This document shows positions 467 through 48,698 of a stretch of 64,000 nucleotides of DNA, in pieces. The notes beneath the pieces were generated by a model. The model was not told the origin of the DNA. It made no database searches and saw only the letters and a program-made list of their open reading frames with translations. The stretch is taken from NCBI GenBank assembly GCA_041658325.1, contig JBBAAI010000001.1, positions 27,427-91,426 of the forward strand, read 5' to 3'. How positions within the stretch are numbered: the first letter of the stretch is position 1; every line of letters begins with the position of its first letter. This DNA is from Minisyncoccota bacterium (GTDB lineage: Bacteria > Patescibacteriota > Minisyncoccia > Phycocordibacterales > UBA9973). Both the position numbers and the translations under genes were made by a program.

Positions 467-1897
467 TTATTTTACTTTTTCAAATTTTTCACCAATTTCA
501 AAAAGTAAATCTTCTTTCCCATGTGACGTCATAAATTGAATTCCCAACGGCATTTTTTTACCTTCCACCAAAGAGTCACCAGAAGGTATAGAAATAGCTG
601 GAATACCAACGATATTTGCGGTAACTGTGAAGATATCCGCTAAATATACAGAAATCGGATCACTTTTTTCTCCTATTTTCCATGCAACAAATGGCACAGT
701 CGGAGTAGCAATAATATCCACTTCTTGAAATGCTTTTGTAAATTCTTTTCTTAATCCTTCTCGAGCAATCTGCGCCTTGCCATAATAAGCATCATAATAA
801 CCAGCAGAAAGAACATAAGTTCCAAGAAGAATTCTCCTTCTTACTTCTTTTCCGAAACCTTGCCCTTTGGTTAATAAATAATCTTCTAACAAATTTTTGC
901 CATCTTTATGCAGGCCGTATCTAACTCCATCAAAACGAGAAAGATTGGTCGATGCCTCAGCGGGCATAATAATATAATAAATAGCCAAAGCAATATCAAG
1001 ATTTTTTAAAGAAATATCTTTAATTTTAAATCCAAGAATTTTAAATTTTTCAATAGCTTGTTCAAAATTTTCTTTTACTTTTTGATCAACACCATCTCCA
1101 TTGACTAAATCCCAAGGCACACCGATAGTTAAAGTATTTTTATTTTCTGAAGAAACCTCTTTGAATGAATTGAAATCAATCGAAGTGCTATCTAAAACAT
1201 CGTATCCAGAAATCGCATTAAAAATTATCGACGCATCTTCTACATTTTTAGCAATAACTCCAATACAATCAAGTGATGACCCCATGGCAATAAGACCATA
1301 TCTAGACACCCTACCATAAGTGGGCTTCATACCCACTATTCCACAAAAAGATGCTGGTTCTCGCACTGACCCACCTGTGTCAGAACCCAGTGCCCCTAAG
1401 GCAAGATTAGCGGCTACTGCAGCGACCGATCCACCGGAAGACCCCCCTGCTACTCGTGATAAATCATTTGGATTTTTTGTTACCCCAAAAGCTGAATTTT
1501 CTGTGGAACCACCCATAGCAAATTCGTCTGTATTTGTTCTCCCTAAAAATACTGCGCCTTGTTTTTTTAATTTAGCTATCGCCGTCGCGTCATAAGAAGC
1601 TGTATAATTTTCTAAAATTTTTGATGCTACGCCAGCTTTTCTGCCTTCAATCAAAATCACATCTTTGATAGCAAGTGGAATTCCTAATAATGGAAATGTT
1701 TCTCCTTTTGCAATTCTTTCATCCGCCTTTTTTGCTTGCTCTAAAACATCATCGTAAATTTCAAGATAAGCATTTAACTCACTGTTCTTCTTTTCAATTT
1801 CAGCCAAATAAGCCAAGGCTAAATCAACCGCAGAAAATTCTTTCGCATCAAGTTTTTTTCTTGCTTCTGTGATGGTTAGAGTATTTAAATCAATCAT
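467..1897 (-). CDS. gatA: Glu-tRNA(Gln)/Asp-tRNA(Asn) amidotransferase subunit A
   Basis: 476 aa; amidase signature GGSSGGS, full-length similarity pattern to GatA; followed by gatC. Confidence 0.9.
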   Translation of the reverse strand: MIDLNTLTITEARKKLDAKEFSAVDLALAYLAEIEKKNSELNAYLEIYDDVLEQAKKADERIAKGETFPLLGIPLAIKDVILIEGRKAGVASKILENYTASYDATAIAKLKKQGAVFLGRTNTDEFAMGGSTENSAFGVTKNPNDLSRVAGGSSGGSVAAVAANLALGALGSDTGGSVREPASFCGIVGMKPTYGRVSRYGLIAMGSSLDCIGVIAKNVEDASIIFNAISGYDVLDSTSIDFNSFKEVSSENKNTLTIGVPWDLVNGDGVDQKVKENFEQAIEKFKILGFKIKDISLKNLDIALAIYYIIMPAEASTNLSRFDGVRYGLHKDGKNLLEDYLLTKGQGFGKEVRRRILLGTYVLSAGYYDAYYGKAQIAREGLRKEFTKAFQEVDIIATPTVPFVAWKIGEKSDPISVYLADIFTVTANIVGIPAISIPSGDSLVEGKKMPLGIQFMTSHGKEDLLFEIGEKFEKVK

Positions 1898-7387: not shown

Positions 7388-8518
7388 TTATACTCCCAAA
7401 AATTCATTTTTCATATCATCTTGATGCGCAGACCTGCCATATTTACGCATACTCATTAAAATTCCTAAGCCGACAAATTCAGTCAACAAATGAGAACCTC
7501 CATAACTCATAAAAGGAAGAGGAATACCAGTCACCGGCAAAAGCCCTAGGTTCATTCCAATATTTATGATTATATGTCCCATAAACCAAATAGCAATGCC
7601 CATACCAAAAAGTATTTCAAAATTAGACGCACCCAAAGAAGCAGTGTAAAGAATTCGCCAAATTACAAGACTGTAAAATAATAAAATTAAAGCCGAACCG
7701 ATGAAACCCCATTCTTCCGCATAAGCAGCAAAAATAAAATCAGATTGAGGAACGGGCAAAAATTTCAATCTTGATTGAGTTCCAAAACCCAACCCCTTGC
7801 CCATTATTTGACCAGAGCCTACAGCAATAGTTGATTGAAAAACATTATACCCTGTTTTTTGGACATCAGCTAAAGGATTTATAAAATTATAAATACGAGC
7901 TTTTTGATATGGAGCAAAAACAAAAAACCAAAGTGAAATAAAAATCAACACTCCAGAAGTAATAACTAAAAATAAGTGAACTTTAGAAATTCCAGAAACA
8001 AGTACCATTCCAAACCAAATAGCCAGAATAATCATCGCTGAACCAAAATCTGGTTGAAGTAAAACCAAGACCAAAGGGACAAGTGCGTAAAATCCAGAAA
8101 TAAAAATGTGTTTAATATCTCTGATTTCTACATGTCGACGGGAAAAATATTTAGCCAAAACTAAAACCAAAACTAACTTCATAACATCAACTGGTTGAAA
8201 AGATAAAAAACCAAAATTAAACCAACTTTTAGGCCCATTAGAAACATTTACTAAAACGACAAGTATCAACAATATAAAAGACGTGAATAAAAATAAAAAT
8301 ACGAGTACATTCGTACGTTTTAAAAAACGAAAATCAATAAAAGAGAAGAGAAAAAAGACAGAAAAAGATATCAGAACCCAAATAATTTGTTTACTAAAAA
8401 AATCACTTGGATTTTCCAGTGATGAAAAAGACTTCATAGTAACAAGGCCTCCTGCAATTATCGGAACGATAAAAACAACTAGGAGCCAATCTATTCTTTT
8501 TAGAGCTTTTTCAGCCAT
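7388..8518 (-). CDS. SEDS family peptidoglycan glycosyltransferase (FtsW/RodA)
   Basis: 376 aa, ~10 TM, conserved SEDS C-terminal region (PVTGIPLPFMSYGGS). Confidence 0.8.
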   Translation of the reverse strand: MAEKALKRIDWLLVVFIVPIIAGGLVTMKSFSSLENPSDFFSKQIIWVLISFSVFFLFSFIDFRFLKRTNVLVFLFLFTSFILLILVVLVNVSNGPKSWFNFGFLSFQPVDVMKLVLVLVLAKYFSRRHVEIRDIKHIFISGFYALVPLVLVLLQPDFGSAMIILAIWFGMVLVSGISKVHLFLVITSGVLIFISLWFFVFAPYQKARIYNFINPLADVQKTGYNVFQSTIAVGSGQIMGKGLGFGTQSRLKFLPVPQSDFIFAAYAEEWGFIGSALILLFYSLVIWRILYTASLGASNFEILFGMGIAIWFMGHIIINIGMNLGLLPVTGIPLPFMSYGGSHLLTEFVGLGILMSMRKYGRSAHQDDMKNEFLGV

Positions 8519-10671: not shown

Positions 10672-10780
<109 letters not shown>

Positions 10781-10869
10781 ACACTGAAAACTCGATTTTC
10801 AATGTTTGTTTTTTAATTTACCCCGTAGTGAGCTTTGCTCTACTACTGGGGTTGTGATTTACAAATTTC

Positions 10870-14150
<3,281 letters not shown>

Positions 14151-44306: not shown

Positions 44307-47300
44307 TTATTTTTCAATTTTTACTTTAAAAATTAAATCACCTATCTTCACCTCTTTCCCCTCGTTTCCTTTATATTCAATTTTAGACACGAGTACAACT
44401 TTTTTGATTTCCACTTCAAACTTTTCTATCAATTTTTTACCCATATCATTGGTTTCGACAACAAGGGTAACAACATCACTCGGAGTAAGCCCTATCTTCT
44501 TTCTTATCTCTTGTAGGGCTCGCGCCAATTCTCGATAATCTCCTTCTTGTTTTAATTCTCCGGTAATTTCTGTGTCTAGCAATACTTCTGTTTCTATATT
44601 TTTATTTTCTTTGATTTCTTTTATGTTTATTTCATCTTTTATGAGCTCCATATACTCTTCTTCTAGGTTGAAATTCTTTATTTGTAGTTTAGCAAGTGGT
44701 TGACGAACTTTTATCCCAGCTTTTTGTCTTGCCTCGAGGCCAAGAGTCACAATATTTCTAACTGCCTCCATTTTTTCTATAATTTTTGGTTCGCCAAATC
44801 CAAAAATACCAAAGACGGTCTTTAACACAGTCGGCCTGCCTGCGCAGGCAGGCCATTCTGCTAAATGCACACTTTCTTCATCTTTTTCATTTTTTAATTT
44901 TGACCAAATATCCTCTGCCGAAAATGGTGCGAATGGGGCAATCAATTTTGCCAGAGTTTTTAATATAAAATAGAGAGTTTGTTTTGCTTCGTTATCTCCT
45001 TCTTTTATTCTTTCACGCGAACGACGCAAATACCAAGTAGAGAGATCACCAACAAAATCTCGAAATGCCCTCGTTGGCTCAAGTAATTTGTAATTATCAA
45101 GATTCTTTGTTGTAAGTTCTATTAATTCATCCAGTCTCGTCAAAGTCCAAATGTCTAAAATATTTTTTGATTTAGGTTTGTTATTTTTTTCTAAATTTTT
45201 ATCTCTGTAAAGTTCATAAAACGCAAGCACGTTATAAAGCAACCCAAAAACTTGTTGATGCAACAAGGCCACAGTTTTTTCATCAAAATTCTTTGACTCA
45301 CCTGGCTGATTAACTGAATACATCCAGAGACGAAGTGTATCAACACCATATTTATCCATCGCTTCCCATGGATCAACAATATTACCGAGAGATTTAGACA
45401 TTTTTTTACCCTTAGCATCAAGTAAATGTCCTAAACAGATAACGTTTTTAAAAGCCTTCCCTCGCCCCACAAGCATTCCCACGGCGTGCAGAGTGTAAAA
45501 CCATCCGCGTGTTTGATCTATCGCCTCTGAAATGAAGTCAGCAGGATAACCTGGACCATCTACCCAATTTTTATTTTCAAATGGGTAGTGATCTTGCGCG
45601 AAAGGCATCGCACCGGAATCAAACCAAACATCCATCACTTCTTTTGTTCTTACCAAATTACCACTACAACTACAAACAAGCGGCACTTTGTCTATGTACG
45701 GTTTGTGCAAATCTAATTCATAATTTTCATTATGTGGGAGAATTGAAAAATCTATTTCTTTAATTTCGGCATTCTTTATATTATCCTTTTCGCCCCGAAA
45801 TTCTATAGTGTTTTTTTTATCAAGACCCAAAGCCACAGATATAAGCAAAAAGGCAGTCACTTCGTGTGTTACTAATAAAATATTTTTATTAGTATATTTA
45901 GACTCAAGCTCATAAATTAATTTTCCAACTCTGTTTTTAACATCGGTATAGGATTCTCCACCTTCTGGTCTTTTTTCAAAACGTATCAAAGTATGAGGAA
46001 ACTCTTTTAGTAAGTCATCAATTTTTTTACCATTATATTTGCCGACGTTCCACTCTAGCAAAGAATCCTCTTCGATTGTCTGCTCCTTCTTTATTCCGAG
46101 AGACGAAATAATAATTTCTGCAGTTTCTTTCGTTCTCGTTAAGGGAGAATATATGACTAGATCAATTTTTGCATTTTTCAATTCTTGCGCACTTTTTCTT
46201 ACTTGTTCTTTCCCCTTTTCAGTAAGGTGGTAGTTGTCGTTTAGAGAATTAGATAAAATATTTTGAACATTGTTTTCTGATTCTCCATGTCGCATCACAA
46301 AATATTTATTCCCAGATTTTTTTGTCTTTTCTTTTATTTCTTCCAAACTCCCCAGAACATCAATTTTTTTACATTTTTCACATTGCCAAACCGGAAGCGG
46401 GGTTCCCCAATATCGCTCGCGAGAAACTGCCCAGTCTTTTATCTCCCTTAGCCACTCACCGAAACGTCCATCACGAATATGTGCTGGTTCCCAATTTATT
46501 TCTTTGTTTTCCGCAATCATCTTTTCTTTGATTTTTGGATCAGTTACTCTGATATACCAAGAATCCCGCGCATAATAAATGAGCGCAGTATGACAACGCC
46601 AACAATGCGGATATGAGTGTTCATATTTTTCTTTTTTCAATAACAATCCGCGGTGCGCCAAATCCTTAATAACATCAACTGCCACTTCTTCGTCTCTTAC
46701 AAATCTGCCTTCAAAAATATCTGTGCCAGGCAAGAATTTACCATCTAGGCCCACGAGATGCTGTTTCGGTAAACTAATTTGCGTTCCGAGAGCAAAGTCA
46801 TCTTGCCCATACATCACCGCCGTGTGCACAACACCAGTTCCATCTTCAGTCGTCACGAAATCTGCCCCGTAAACTTTGTATGCTTTTTCTAATTTCGGTT
46901 TTTCGCTTTCAGAAATAATATTGGCAAGATACGGATAAAGTGGTTCGTATTCTAAGCCGATTAAATCTTTGCCTTTCATTTCTTCTGTAATTTCATATTC
47001 ACCATCAATTATGGAAAGTCGGGCCTTAGCTAAGATAAAAATCTCGTTGCCAAATTTAATTTTCACATAATCAATATCTTTACCAACTGCCAAAGCAACG
47101 TTCCCCGGCAATGTCCAAGGAGTCGTCGTCCAAGCTAGAATATATGTATTAGCCGAAGCCGTATGCTTGTGCGAATGGTCTGGCTGGGGTTGGGGACCCA
47201 GAGAACCGAGGACCTGAGCAGAAGCATCGGCGAAGGCCTTTATTTTAAATTTCACATAAACAGACAAATCTTTTACATCTTCATACCCTTGGGCTAGTTC

Positions 47301-47888
47301 GTGCGAAGAAAGAGCTGTGCCACAACGCGGACACCAAGGTACGACTTTATAATCTTTATAAAGTAAATTCTGTTCGTTTATTTTTTTTACGATATTCCAA
47401 ACAGATTCAATAAATTTATTGTGATAAGTAACATATGGATTTTCTTGATCCACCCAATATCCGATACGCTTGGTAAATTTATTCCAAATTTCCAAATATT
47501 CCCAAACGCTTTCTTTACATTCCTGATTAAATTTCGCAATTCCATATTCTTCAATCGCCTTTTTGGAATTAAGTCCCAATTTTTTTTCTACTTGTAATTC
47601 CACAGGAAGACCATGCGTATCCCATCCGCCTTTTCGGCGCACGTGATATCCCTGCATCGTTTTATATCTCGGGATTACGTCCTTGAACGCTCGCGCCTCC
47701 AAATGGTGAATCCCCGGCTTGCCGTTTGCCGTCGGTGGACCTTCGTAAAAAATAAATTCCTTCTTCCCTTCAGTTTGTTCTAGAGATTTCTCAAAAATTT
47801 TCTTTTCTTTCCAAAATTCTAAAATTCTTTCCTCGCGCAACGCCGTTTCACTTTTTTTGTTTGTCTTGTTTGTTTCTTCTTCTTTCAT
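44307..47888 (-). CDS. ileS: isoleucyl-tRNA synthetase with in-frame inserted histidine-phosphatase (PGAM-like) domain
   Basis: 1193 aa single ORF; IleRS motifs (PPTANGKPGIHH, WTTTPWTLP, CP1 editing region, KMSKS, DVWFDSG); residues ~527-690 contain RHGE, SPLTRTKETA, EGGES, LVTHE = histidine phosphatase signature. Confidence 0.9.
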   Translation of the reverse strand: MKEEETNKTNKKSETALREERILEFWKEKKIFEKSLEQTEGKKEFIFYEGPPTANGKPGIHHLEARAFKDVIPRYKTMQGYHVRRKGGWDTHGLPVELQVEKKLGLNSKKAIEEYGIAKFNQECKESVWEYLEIWNKFTKRIGYWVDQENPYVTYHNKFIESVWNIVKKINEQNLLYKDYKVVPWCPRCGTALSSHELAQGYEDVKDLSVYVKFKIKAFADASAQVLGSLGPQPQPDHSHKHTASANTYILAWTTTPWTLPGNVALAVGKDIDYVKIKFGNEIFILAKARLSIIDGEYEITEEMKGKDLIGLEYEPLYPYLANIISESEKPKLEKAYKVYGADFVTTEDGTGVVHTAVMYGQDDFALGTQISLPKQHLVGLDGKFLPGTDIFEGRFVRDEEVAVDVIKDLAHRGLLLKKEKYEHSYPHCWRCHTALIYYARDSWYIRVTDPKIKEKMIAENKEINWEPAHIRDGRFGEWLREIKDWAVSRERYWGTPLPVWQCEKCKKIDVLGSLEEIKEKTKKSGNKYFVMRHGESENNVQNILSNSLNDNYHLTEKGKEQVRKSAQELKNAKIDLVIYSPLTRTKETAEIIISSLGIKKEQTIEEDSLLEWNVGKYNGKKIDDLLKEFPHTLIRFEKRPEGGESYTDVKNRVGKLIYELESKYTNKNILLVTHEVTAFLLISVALGLDKKNTIEFRGEKDNIKNAEIKEIDFSILPHNENYELDLHKPYIDKVPLVCSCSGNLVRTKEVMDVWFDSGAMPFAQDHYPFENKNWVDGPGYPADFISEAIDQTRGWFYTLHAVGMLVGRGKAFKNVICLGHLLDAKGKKMSKSLGNIVDPWEAMDKYGVDTLRLWMYSVNQPGESKNFDEKTVALLHQQVFGLLYNVLAFYELYRDKNLEKNNKPKSKNILDIWTLTRLDELIELTTKNLDNYKLLEPTRAFRDFVGDLSTWYLRRSRERIKEGDNEAKQTLYFILKTLAKLIAPFAPFSAEDIWSKLKNEKDEESVHLAEWPACAGRPTVLKTVFGIFGFGEPKIIEKMEAVRNIVTLGLEARQKAGIKVRQPLAKLQIKNFNLEEEYMELIKDEINIKEIKENKNIETEVLLDTEITGELKQEGDYRELARALQEIRKKIGLTPSDVVTLVVETNDMGKKLIEKFEVEIKKVVLVSKIEYKGNEGKEVKIGDLIFKVKIEK
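44833..44854. repeat. perfect 22-nt GC palindrome ggcctgcctgcgcaggcaggcc inside ileS (codes PACAGRP)
   Basis: 18-nt core cctgcctgcgcaggcagg also present at 56167..56184 inside comEC. Confidence 0.8.
47174..47218. repeat. GC-rich 45-nt dispersed repeat copy inside ileS (codes ASAQVLGSLGPQPQPD, an insertion before WTTTPWTLP)
   Basis: reverse complement of 31537..31581, 44/45 identical. Confidence 0.8.
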
Positions 47889-47924
47889 AATTTATATCCC
47901 TACAAACTCCAGTTTGTTGGTATG

Positions 47925-48180
47925 TTATATTTTGATAAATAAAAAACTCGTCCACGTACAACAATAAAAATTGTTATACAAGGACGAGTTTCTCGTGGTA
48001 CCACCTTGTTTACTTCTCATTTAATGGGTTCTACTCCCCTCGCGGGTTTCTTCCCAAAGCTCTAGGGTGATTTCCCCTTCAACGCTTGTAAAGAAATAAT
48101 AACATAAATATCAAAACAGCTCAATTCGGCTAGAGCACAGAGCTTGTACCTATAAAATCGATACTTGAAACCCGATAGAA
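47925..48180 (-). promoter_or_regulatory. putative T-box riboswitch leader of ileS (T-box sequence + intrinsic terminator)
   Basis: minus strand carries AAGGUGGUACCACGAG (T-box consensus AGGGUGGUACCGCG) partly overlapping terminator stem AAACUCGUCC...GGACGAGUUU + U-run; 310-nt leader upstream of an aaRS gene. Confidence 0.45.
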
Positions 48181-48197
48181 CAGACAATTTTAAAAAA

Positions 48198-48491
48198 TTA
48201 TCTACATCCAAAGTTATCACAAATATTTTCACACACAGGAGAGTTACTTAAGTCATCTTTACTGCCAACAAAACTACATTTGTACCCACAATCAAACCTT
48301 TTATATTGAGTTGTTCCATCTCCGTAATAAGCGTTACCGGCTGATAAGCAAGTTTCTTTTGATTTATAATCTATCCGCATAAGAGTTACACCTTCTCCGT
48401 AAAGATTTAATTGCCAGGGCTTACTAAAATAAGTATAAGCTCCATACATTAACACAACCAATATTAAAACAACTATTATTTTATTTTTCAT
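48198..48491 (-). CDS. small secreted Cys-rich protein
   Basis: 97 aa, N-terminal signal/TM, 8 Cys. Confidence 0.4.
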   Translation of the reverse strand: MKNKIIVVLILVVLMYGAYTYFSKPWQLNLYGEGVTLMRIDYKSKETCLSAGNAYYGDGTTQYKRFDCGYKCSFVGSKDDLSNSPVCENICDNFGCR

Positions 48492-48503
48492 AATACATTT
48501 TTT

Positions 48504-48698
48504 CTAATTCTGCGACTTGCATATATCTACATTTGTTTTAAATGACTCCAAGTTTAAAAGATTCTCTTGTGGAACAACATCCAGGCATTTTTTGAAAACA
48601 ATATTTTTACGATTCAAATAATACATAAGGAAGGAATTGATCACTATTAAAATAAACACAAACAACACAACACGAATTAAAATATTTTTATGCTCCAT
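48504..48698 (-). CDS. small membrane protein
   Basis: 64 aa, one TM; ORF only. Confidence 0.25.
   Translation of the reverse strand: MEHKNILIRVVLFVFILIVINSFLMYYLNRKNIVFKKCLDVVPQENLLNLESFKTNVDICKSQN

Follow-up and report, generated by a model that had tools for sequence, protein, structure and literature searches.

Does a bacterium of the Candidate Phyla Radiation (CPR) regulate an aminoacyl-tRNA synthetase gene with a T-box riboswitch? The question was raised by the spacer upstream of the isoleucyl-tRNA synthetase gene ileS, on the minus strand of a 64,000-nt stretch of DNA from a Minisyncoccota bacterium (GenBank assembly GCA_041658325.1, contig JBBAAI010000001.1, positions 27,427 to 91,426; the whole stretch is called the window here). 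An earlier note made from the sequence had read a T-box-like leader with an intrinsic terminator in this spacer. In this study, we believe that the leader is very probably a functional T-box riboswitch, which responds to tRNA-Ile and controls ileS by transcription attenuation.

The spacer extends from a small open reading frame (ORF), with its stop at 48198, to the ATG of ileS at 47888. It is present as described earlier, except that its length is 309 nt (48197..47889) and not 310 nt. The functional element spans approximately 48124..47935, within the interval 47925..48180 named in the earlier note. It begins with a promoter-like site, whose position suggests that it serves as the promoter of the leader, and the transcript start is predicted a few nucleotides 5' of Stem I. 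Stem I is ultrashort. Its kink-turn (K-turn) consists of a 3-nt bulge, GUU, and tandem G.A/A.G pairs, the upper helix has 4 bp, and the terminal loop has 6 nt, AAAUCA. A Stem I with an AUC specifier and a downstream purine, as anticipated in the earlier note, could therefore be modelled, and the codon agrees with the regulated gene, which was identified as ileS by Pfam. The internal loop of Stem II, AAGAA // AGUAGAA, is an S-turn (loop E), as judged on sequence and secondary structure. The linker that follows keeps the purine string AGAAG-U-AA, which compares with the motif 5'-RRRxG-StemIII-AA-3' (PMC7583486); at the site of Stem III, the flanking purines AGAAG...AA are kept and a single U stands in place of the hairpin. 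Inspection of this 17-nt linker revealed no IIA/B pseudoknot with an F-box (CCGUUA). Across the minimal leaders of relatives, no conserved pairing that could form a substitute mini-hairpin or pseudoknot was seen in the linker, judged by eye and without a formal test. The distal Stem I platform (AG bulge and distal loop, the interdigitated T-loops) is also absent, and Stem I ends in the specifier loop. The earlier note was silent on the ultrashort Stem I and on the missing pseudoknot and Stem III.

The 14-nt T-box sequence AAGGUGGUACCACG lies inside the antiterminator, in the spacer where it had been reported. It is the sole match in the window even when two mismatches are allowed, with 0.12 matches expected by chance. 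The antiterminator consists of helix A1 (CAAGG/CCUUG) and helix A2 (ACGAG/CUCGU with an AAA loop), and a 7-nt bulge lies between them. The terminator stem and U-tract proposed earlier were also found. The terminator is a single, continuous hairpin of about 23 bp in which one internal position is mismatched, and what had been described as a nested inverted repeat in its loop is merely the upper part of this hairpin. The 5' arm of the terminator reuses the 3' strands of A2 and A1 and overlaps the 3' half of the antiterminator, with CUCGUCCUUG common to both structures. This is the canonical, mutually exclusive arrangement that had been claimed. The folding energies are -29.0 kcal/mol for the terminator and -7.0 kcal/mol for the antiterminator, a gap of about 22 kcal/mol, and the whole leader folds with z = -5.4 compared with shuffles. 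Because the terminator is present in the minimum-free-energy structure and is far more stable than the antiterminator, the default state would be "off". The coordinates are collected in the table.

Table. Features of the ileS leader and its surroundings in the window (minus-strand elements; positions count from the first letter of the window).
Feature	Position	Strand	Details
Promoter-like site	48096..48124	-	-35 TTGAGC at 48124..48119, 17-nt spacer, extended -10 TGnTATTAT at 48104..48096 (consensus scan)
Ultrashort Stem I	48057..48087	-	C-stem AAGC/GCUU, K-turn, helix GGGG/CCCU, terminal loop
Specifier AUC	48071..48069	-	Ile codon, reads anticodon GAU; purine A next at 48068
Stem II	48026..48055	-	Basal helix GGG/CCC, internal loop, apical CCC/GGG, GCGA tetraloop
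Linker	48009..48025	-	AUUAAAUGAGAAGUAAA, 17 nt, purine-rich
Antiterminator (discriminator core)	47979..48008	-	CAAGG-UGGUACC-ACGAG-AAA-CUCGU-CCUUG
T-box sequence	48007..47994	-	AAGGUGGUACCACG
Bulge between A1 and A2	48003..47997	-	UGGUACC
Intrinsic terminator	47935..47991	-	23-bp hairpin 47991..47944, then UUUUUU AUUUAU; arms AAACUCGUCC (47991..47982) and GGACGAGUUU (47953..47944), U's up to 47941
ileS	44307..47888	-	1193 aa; Pfam tRNA-synt_1, Anticodon_1, His_Phos_1
Histidine-phosphatase insert in IleS	45735..46311	-	aa ~526-718; Pfam His_Phos_1, E = 5.6e-36
Two small ORFs	48198..48698	-	97 aa (hydrophobic N-terminus, several Cys) and 64 aa; no Pfam match
23S rRNA	10676..14139	-	3271 nt vs 2925-nt model, then 5S rRNA

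The leader was compared with the Rfam T-box family, RF00230. A default Rfam scan of the window at the gathering threshold returned only 23S and 5S rRNA and no T-box. When a 401-nt segment (47850..48250) was searched in E-value mode, RF00230 matched 47977..48091 on the minus strand with E = 9.5e-09. The match that the earlier note had looked forward to was thus obtained, but its 44.5 bits are below the gathering score of 93. In the alignment, the K-turn, the base of Stem I, Stem II, and the whole antiterminator are well placed, and the K-turn, T-box, bulge, A1, and A2 have high posterior probability. A total of 74 model positions of Stem I are deleted, and the regions of IIA/B and Stem III are nearly empty. 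The deficit in score therefore reflects the deletion of modules (distal Stem I platform, IIA/B pseudoknot, and Stem III), with the core retained. The leader shares with RF00230 the 14-nt T-box, the UGGNACC-type bulge between A1 and A2, the K-turn, the specifier followed by a purine, the shared-strand terminator, and the S-turn of Stem II. The earlier note had held that a covariance score below threshold together with the lack of a Stem I or specifier loop would speak against a T-box; the low score was observed, owing to the module deletion, and both Stem I and the specifier are there. Sub-threshold scores of this kind mean that standard annotation and Rfam-derived databases would miss such leaders.

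The genome collection was scanned with the N-terminus of IleS to find relatives. The scan gave 80 loci with 72-93% identity to the query, all labelled Patescibacteria, Paceibacterota, Nomurabacteria or Minisyncoccia, or "Saccharibacteria", by automated pipelines. The IleS of the window is identical to MFA5777943.1 from a Candidatus Paceibacterota metagenome-assembled genome (MAG), and Paceibacterota corresponds to the phylum Minisyncoccota of the kingdom Bacillati. All 80 closest relatives are Patescibacteria, and the host belongs to CPR, as had been supposed.

The same leader was found directly 5' of ileS in 34 of the 80 species-level Patescibacteria genomes by a regular expression and a covariance model. 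The covariance model (R1) was built from six minimal leaders, and the leaders were realigned with R1 since MAFFT, applied to all leaders, misaligned the variable insertions. R1 scored 127 bits in the window and 29-140 bits in the relatives. There was no second R1 match in the window, which contains a single T-box core, and argS has no leader there. The earlier statement that no other aminoacyl-tRNA synthetase gene of the window has a leader holds. One R1 match of 14.9 bits, at locus L001, was rejected as false because it lies within the ileS coding sequence.

The results showed that the specifier AUC was invariant in all 35 leaders (34 relatives and the window), with A or G as the next base in every case. 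The bulge UGGUACC was the same in all 35 leaders, and helix A1 was invariant across the aligned leaders. A terminator of 20-25 bp with a T-run of at least four was present in all 34 relatives, at a variable distance from the start codon, and an extended -10 (TGnTAnnnT) was found 7-9 nt 5' of Stem I in each of them. The arms of the terminator changed in step with the antiterminator, for example at loci L006, L080, and L066. Base pairs were counted in a model-based alignment (A4) of 32 leaders, from which L051, L070, and L075 were left out because of poor model placement. Paired cells made up 97.5%, compared with 90.1% in column shuffles and 34-54% with slid partners; A4 was fitted to the proposed structure, and these counts are biased toward that structure. 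Ten pairs were changed on both sides: 4/4 in the upper helix of Stem I, which supports the modelled specifier hairpin, 3/3 in the apex of Stem II, one in the C-stem of the K-turn, and two in helix A2. RNAalifold, run independently on a plain MAFFT alignment of six minimal leaders, arrived at the proposed helices and the 7-nt bulge, and seven pairs showed compensatory changes. The base of A2 was an A-U pair instead of the usual G.U wobble in 31 of the 32 leaders. The anatomy of the leader, its conservation and covariation, and the match between codon and gene are established.

The 35 leaders differed by whole modules. A Stem IIA hairpin with the F-box CCGUUA (ACGGGUAAGCCCGUUAUAGC) was present in 12 of the 34 relatives, where the Rfam model aligned with it. 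A hairpin for Stem III, flanked by GAGAAG and AA(A)C, was likewise found in 12 of the 34. Neither Stem IIA/F-box nor Stem III was present in 18 of the 35 leaders, the window included. Nine leaders had no insertion of any kind and measured 112-131 nt from Stem I through the antiterminator. Compensatory changes persisted within the subset of minimal forms. Given that 18 of 35 leaders have this form and that compensatory changes occur inside the subset, the minimal form itself is maintained. In L017 and L066, a small helix above the specifier makes Stem I "short" rather than ultrashort. The RF00230 scores of the relatives ranged from 36 to 75 bits, with 65-75 bits where both the pseudoknot and Stem III were present; they never reached 93 bits because Stem I is always truncated. 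The scores of these module-richer relatives indicate that the window form stands at one extreme of a homologous series. In a rough neighbour-joining tree built from IleS, drawn with no support values, leaders with and without each module and loci with no leader were interleaved, which suggests repeated loss.

Two kinds of insertions were also observed among the leaders. Insertions of 20-50 nt with an extra hairpin were found in the A2 loop of L016, L038, L051, L054, L070, L077, and others, for example GGUUCGACAAGCUCACCGCAAGCG..GGCUUAAGAC. In L013, L043, L076, L077, L009, L051, L070, and L075, an additional hairpin stands between Stems I and II. Such hairpins are reminiscent of "stem Sa", a lineage-specific element of the staphylococcal glyS T-boxes.

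Several observations weigh against a functional T-box. The leader falls short of RF00230 membership by score, and the pair counts carry the bias noted above. No leader of any kind was found in 46 of the 80 relatives, which include the nearest IleS neighbours of the window; the leader is dispensable in evolution. In these 46 loci, ileS mostly adjoins the upstream gene, which is often argS, and no diverged or relic T-box was found in the four loci with long upstream gaps. The tRNA-Ile of the organism was not found by ARAGORN in the window, the 80 genome loci, or 120 metagenome loci. The tRNAs in the fetched loci were one unrelated Trp and one unrelated Lys, and none in 206 loci was assignable to the host. 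A73 is the usual discriminator base of bacterial tRNA-Ile and would pair with the U at position 4 of the bulge. The proposed pairing of UGGU with the A73-CCA end comes from this general knowledge of bacterial tRNA-Ile. Published work also sets limits. In an actinobacterial ileS T-box, the loss of tRNA binding on deletion of the pseudoknot was about 1,200-fold, Stem III and the 5'-RRRxG...AA-3' purines on either side of it have been called indispensable for the discriminator, and a long Stem I is said to be generally required in transcriptional T-boxes (PMC7583486). In the window leader, an ultrashort Stem I occurs together with an intrinsic terminator, and the distal platform, pseudoknot, and Stem III hairpin are absent.

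It may be considered that the leader is a decaying relic, that is, a T-box descendant that has lost tRNA sensing and acts as a constitutive or otherwise modulated attenuator made of a promoter and a leaky terminator. The modules missing from the window have been reported as essential for tRNA binding in the T-boxes studied, and the whole leader has been lost repeatedly among the relatives. However, the AUC with its purine, the S-turn motifs, the purine string, and UGGUACC were invariant in 35 leaders, despite IleS N-termini that are 72-93% identical, and a mere terminator would put no constraint on these elements. Stem I and the apex of Stem II keep their pairing through compensatory changes even in the minimal subset. 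Moreover, T77, a Nocardia farcinica construct without the pseudoknot, still docks tRNA at an approximately four-fold higher Mg2+ concentration (PMC10651847), so a decoder without a pseudoknot is not implausible. We regard a relic as quite unlikely. Because the specific sequence features are conserved and still covary, the module-poor form of the window likely still senses tRNA.

Another explanation is a translational T-box as in the actinobacterial ileS class, in which the 3' hairpin would sequester the ribosome-binding site. The Stem I and Stem II of the window are of the actinobacterial type, and ultrashort Stem I has mostly been described for translational T-boxes (PMC7583486). The hairpin, however, ends 52 nt 5' of the ATG of ileS and does not cover the candidate Shine-Dalgarno sequences GGAG/GGGA, six U's follow directly 3' of it, and the hairpin with a T-run of at least four is kept in all 34 relatives at a variable distance from the start codon, which makes this explanation highly improbable. 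A chance resemblance, or another RNA family or small ORF that holds a T-box-like 14-mer, could appeal to the Rfam score under the gathering score and to a mechanically called 56-aa GTG ORF (48062..48232) that overlaps the leader, but it has practically no probability left and is effectively refuted by the RF00230 E-value with no other family credible, by the colinearity of several domains with an experimentally studied T-box, and by conservation and covariation that follow RNA pairing and not codons.

For a functional T-box riboswitch upstream of ileS, we propose the following mechanism. Transcription would start at the extended -10 promoter, a few nucleotides before Stem I, and the nascent RNA would fold the K-turn/specifier hairpin and Stem II. 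The purines of the Stem II S-turn may then dock on the duplex between AUC and the anticodon of tRNA-Ile(GAU), as in the actinobacterial ileS T-boxes. If the tRNA is uncharged, its 3' ACCA would pair with the UGGU of the bulge and stabilise the weak antiterminator (-7 kcal/mol), and RNA polymerase would read through into ileS. With a charged tRNA, or with none, the 23-bp terminator (-29 kcal/mol) would instead nucleate from the 3' strands of A1 and A2, and transcription would stop at the U-tract. We infer tRNA binding, the sensing of charge, and termination in vivo from the leader's features. On sequence grounds, the leader is a genuine but drastically shortened member of the T-box mechanism class.

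T-box-like leaders were also observed upstream of other genes. At locus L114 (1795-1915, minus strand), such a leader lies 5' of a ProRS gene (protein MFA6519133.1) in a Candidatus Shapirobacteria MAG, which belongs to Microgenomates. It has a K-turn-like ultrashort hairpin with the loop UUUCCCG (Pro codon CCC and G) and the sequence AAGGUGGUACCACG, and the Rfam T-box model gave it 36.6 bits; no obvious terminator was seen in this proS leader. A homologous proS leader at L202 (GCA_016188545.1, ~770-975, plus strand), also from Candidatus Shapirobacteria, has an ultrashort hairpin with the loop UAUCCCG (again CCC and G), AGGGUGGUACCACG, an 8-bp terminator with a U-tract, and an Rfam score of 40.4 bits. 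Among six further ProRS loci of Shapirobacteria, Woesebacteria, and Microgenomates, only L202 had a leader and five had none. At least two CPR classes and two amino acids are thus represented among the T-box-like leaders, and the distribution is again patchy.

Other loci gave isolated examples. At L110 (~8200-8340, minus strand; contig GC 0.37), a short T-box-like leader precedes an ArgRS of 779 aa that is fused to an N-terminal B3_4 domain. The leader contains AAGGUGGUACCACG, an extended -10, and a terminator with U5, and its sole 5' hairpin, GUGA-AGUCGCGA-UCAC, has the Arg codon CGC in the loop. The tyrS leader of Parvimonas micra, a member of Firmicutes (L188, 4147-4253, minus strand; Rfam 31.9 bits), shares the ultrashort design of Stem I, with a K-turn followed by UGUG-CUUACAA-CACA with the Tyr codon UAC and A. 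This indicates that T-boxes with a truncated Stem I that escape annotation are not exclusive to CPR or Actinobacteria. On L138, a groundwater metagenome contig, a T-box-like leader (30 bits; 906-1181, plus strand) precedes a 91-aa ORF without a Pfam match (1239-1511, plus strand) and, beyond it, a gene for tRNA-Trp(CCA) (1764-1834, plus strand), which is an unusual order. A scan of metagenomes with the pattern AAGGTGGTACCACG..CGTCCTT listed at least 120 matches. The pattern was rejected as specific for this subfamily, since most of the matches listed were canonical T-boxes with a long Stem I from other taxa; being unspecific, it allows no statement on abundance.

The surroundings of the regulated gene were also described. 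The histidine-phosphatase domain of IleS is inserted in the class I catalytic domain and separates its two halves. The RHG motif (VMRHGESE) and the second His (LVTHEV) of the insert are intact. The insert was found in 78 of the 80 related Patescibacteria IleS genes with 35-48% identity, with or without a T-box, and also in the more distant IleS of L149. In the window, the two small ORFs lie between argS and the promoter-like site of the leader, and in many relatives argS is directly 5' of the leader or of ileS itself. The 23S rRNA is longer than its model and therefore contains insertions. No 16S rRNA and no tRNA gene were found in the window, which indicates that the rRNA operon is unlinked.

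T-boxes are known from Firmicutes, Actinobacteria, Chloroflexi, Deinococcus-Thermus, and a few Proteobacteria (two in earlier surveys) (PMC2494555; TBDB). In these earlier surveys, ileS was the gene typically found with a T-box outside Firmicutes. CPR phyla are not mentioned in the TBDB paper or in its supplements, and the class II model of TBDB was searched in Actinobacteria only. In full-text literature searches, whose coverage is incomplete, no report linking T-boxes with the Candidate Phyla Radiation was found, which agrees with the earlier remark that none was known. Gene regulation in these ultrasmall, host-dependent bacteria is poorly understood, and T-boxes would add a native RNA regulator that senses amino-acid supply. 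Their presence is in line with a position of CPR inside Bacillati/Terrabacteria. The leaders form a natural deletion series, from full modules to the loss of the pseudoknot, of Stem III, or of both. Throughout the series, an ultrashort Stem I is paired with a transcription terminator, a combination that the field considers unfavourable. The form of approximately 112 nt is a candidate minimal T-box, useful for mechanistic work and for the engineering of tRNA-responsive switches.

A wider proposal is that there is a large unannotated population of miniature T-boxes in CPR (ileS in Paceibacterota/Nomurabacteria and proS in Shapirobacteria), in which the ~112-nt window form is a working co-transcriptional tRNA sensor. 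We put this forward tentatively and give it somewhat less than an even chance. If it were true, it would contradict the current rules that a transcriptional T-box needs a long Stem I and that neither the pseudoknot nor Stem III can be dispensed with. There would then be a compensating feature, such as a protein cofactor, a slow or pausing RNA polymerase, or new tRNA contacts, or the minimal T-box would be much smaller than thought. T-boxes would also be placed in an ancestor common to CPR and other Terrabacteria (Bacillati).

The closest known system is the ileS T-boxes of Actinobacteria ("class II" or translational; Nocardia farcinica and Mycobacterium tuberculosis), for which tRNA-Ile binding and structures are known (6UFM and 6UFG, as cited in PMC7583486 and PMC10651847). 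The N. farcinica ileS aptamer construct T99 (Supplementary Table 2, PMC10651847) was used as the reference. T99 was colinear with the window and its relatives in the K-turn, the 4-bp helix, the NNAUCA loop, GGAAGAA, and AGUAGAACC, and with the relatives also in IIA/B, which indicates that the decoding half is homologous to the actinobacterial ileS class. The same gene is regulated, the specifier is AUC followed by A, and the ultrashort Stem I with K-turn, 4-bp helix, and codon in the terminal loop has no elbow-binding platform. The S-turn sequences of Stem II (GGAAGAA / AGUAGAACC) are the same, and 12 relatives have the IIA/B element (ACGGGUAAGCCCGUUAUAGC, compared with ACGGGUGAGCCCCGUCACAGC in N. 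farcinica). In contrast to the actinobacterial T-boxes, the expression platform of the window is an intrinsic terminator with a U-tract and not a Shine-Dalgarno sequestrator, the window copy and half of its family lack the IIA/B pseudoknot and the Stem III hairpin, and the host phylum is Minisyncoccota/Patescibacteria and not Actinomycetota.

With the transcriptional T-boxes of Firmicutes (RF00230; Bacillus subtilis tyrS), the leader shares the basal K-turn of Stem I, the specifier with its purine, the S-turn of Stem II, the 14-nt T-box (12 of 14 positions identical to AGGGUGGNACCGCG), the UGGNACC bulge, helices A1 and A2, and a competing terminator with a U-tract. It differs from them in the absence of about 74 nt of Stem I (S-turn, C-loop, AG bulge, and distal loop platform) and of the pseudoknot/F-box and Stem III in the window copy, and in an A-U pair instead of G.U at the base of A2. 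The glyQS T-boxes are also naturally streamlined; they have dropped decoding modules and kept the terminator/antiterminator switch (PMC11297988). They lack Stem II and IIA/B and keep a long Stem I with the elbow platform and Stem III, whereas the window leader shows the opposite set, in which Stem II is kept and the platform, the pseudoknot, and Stem III are lost.

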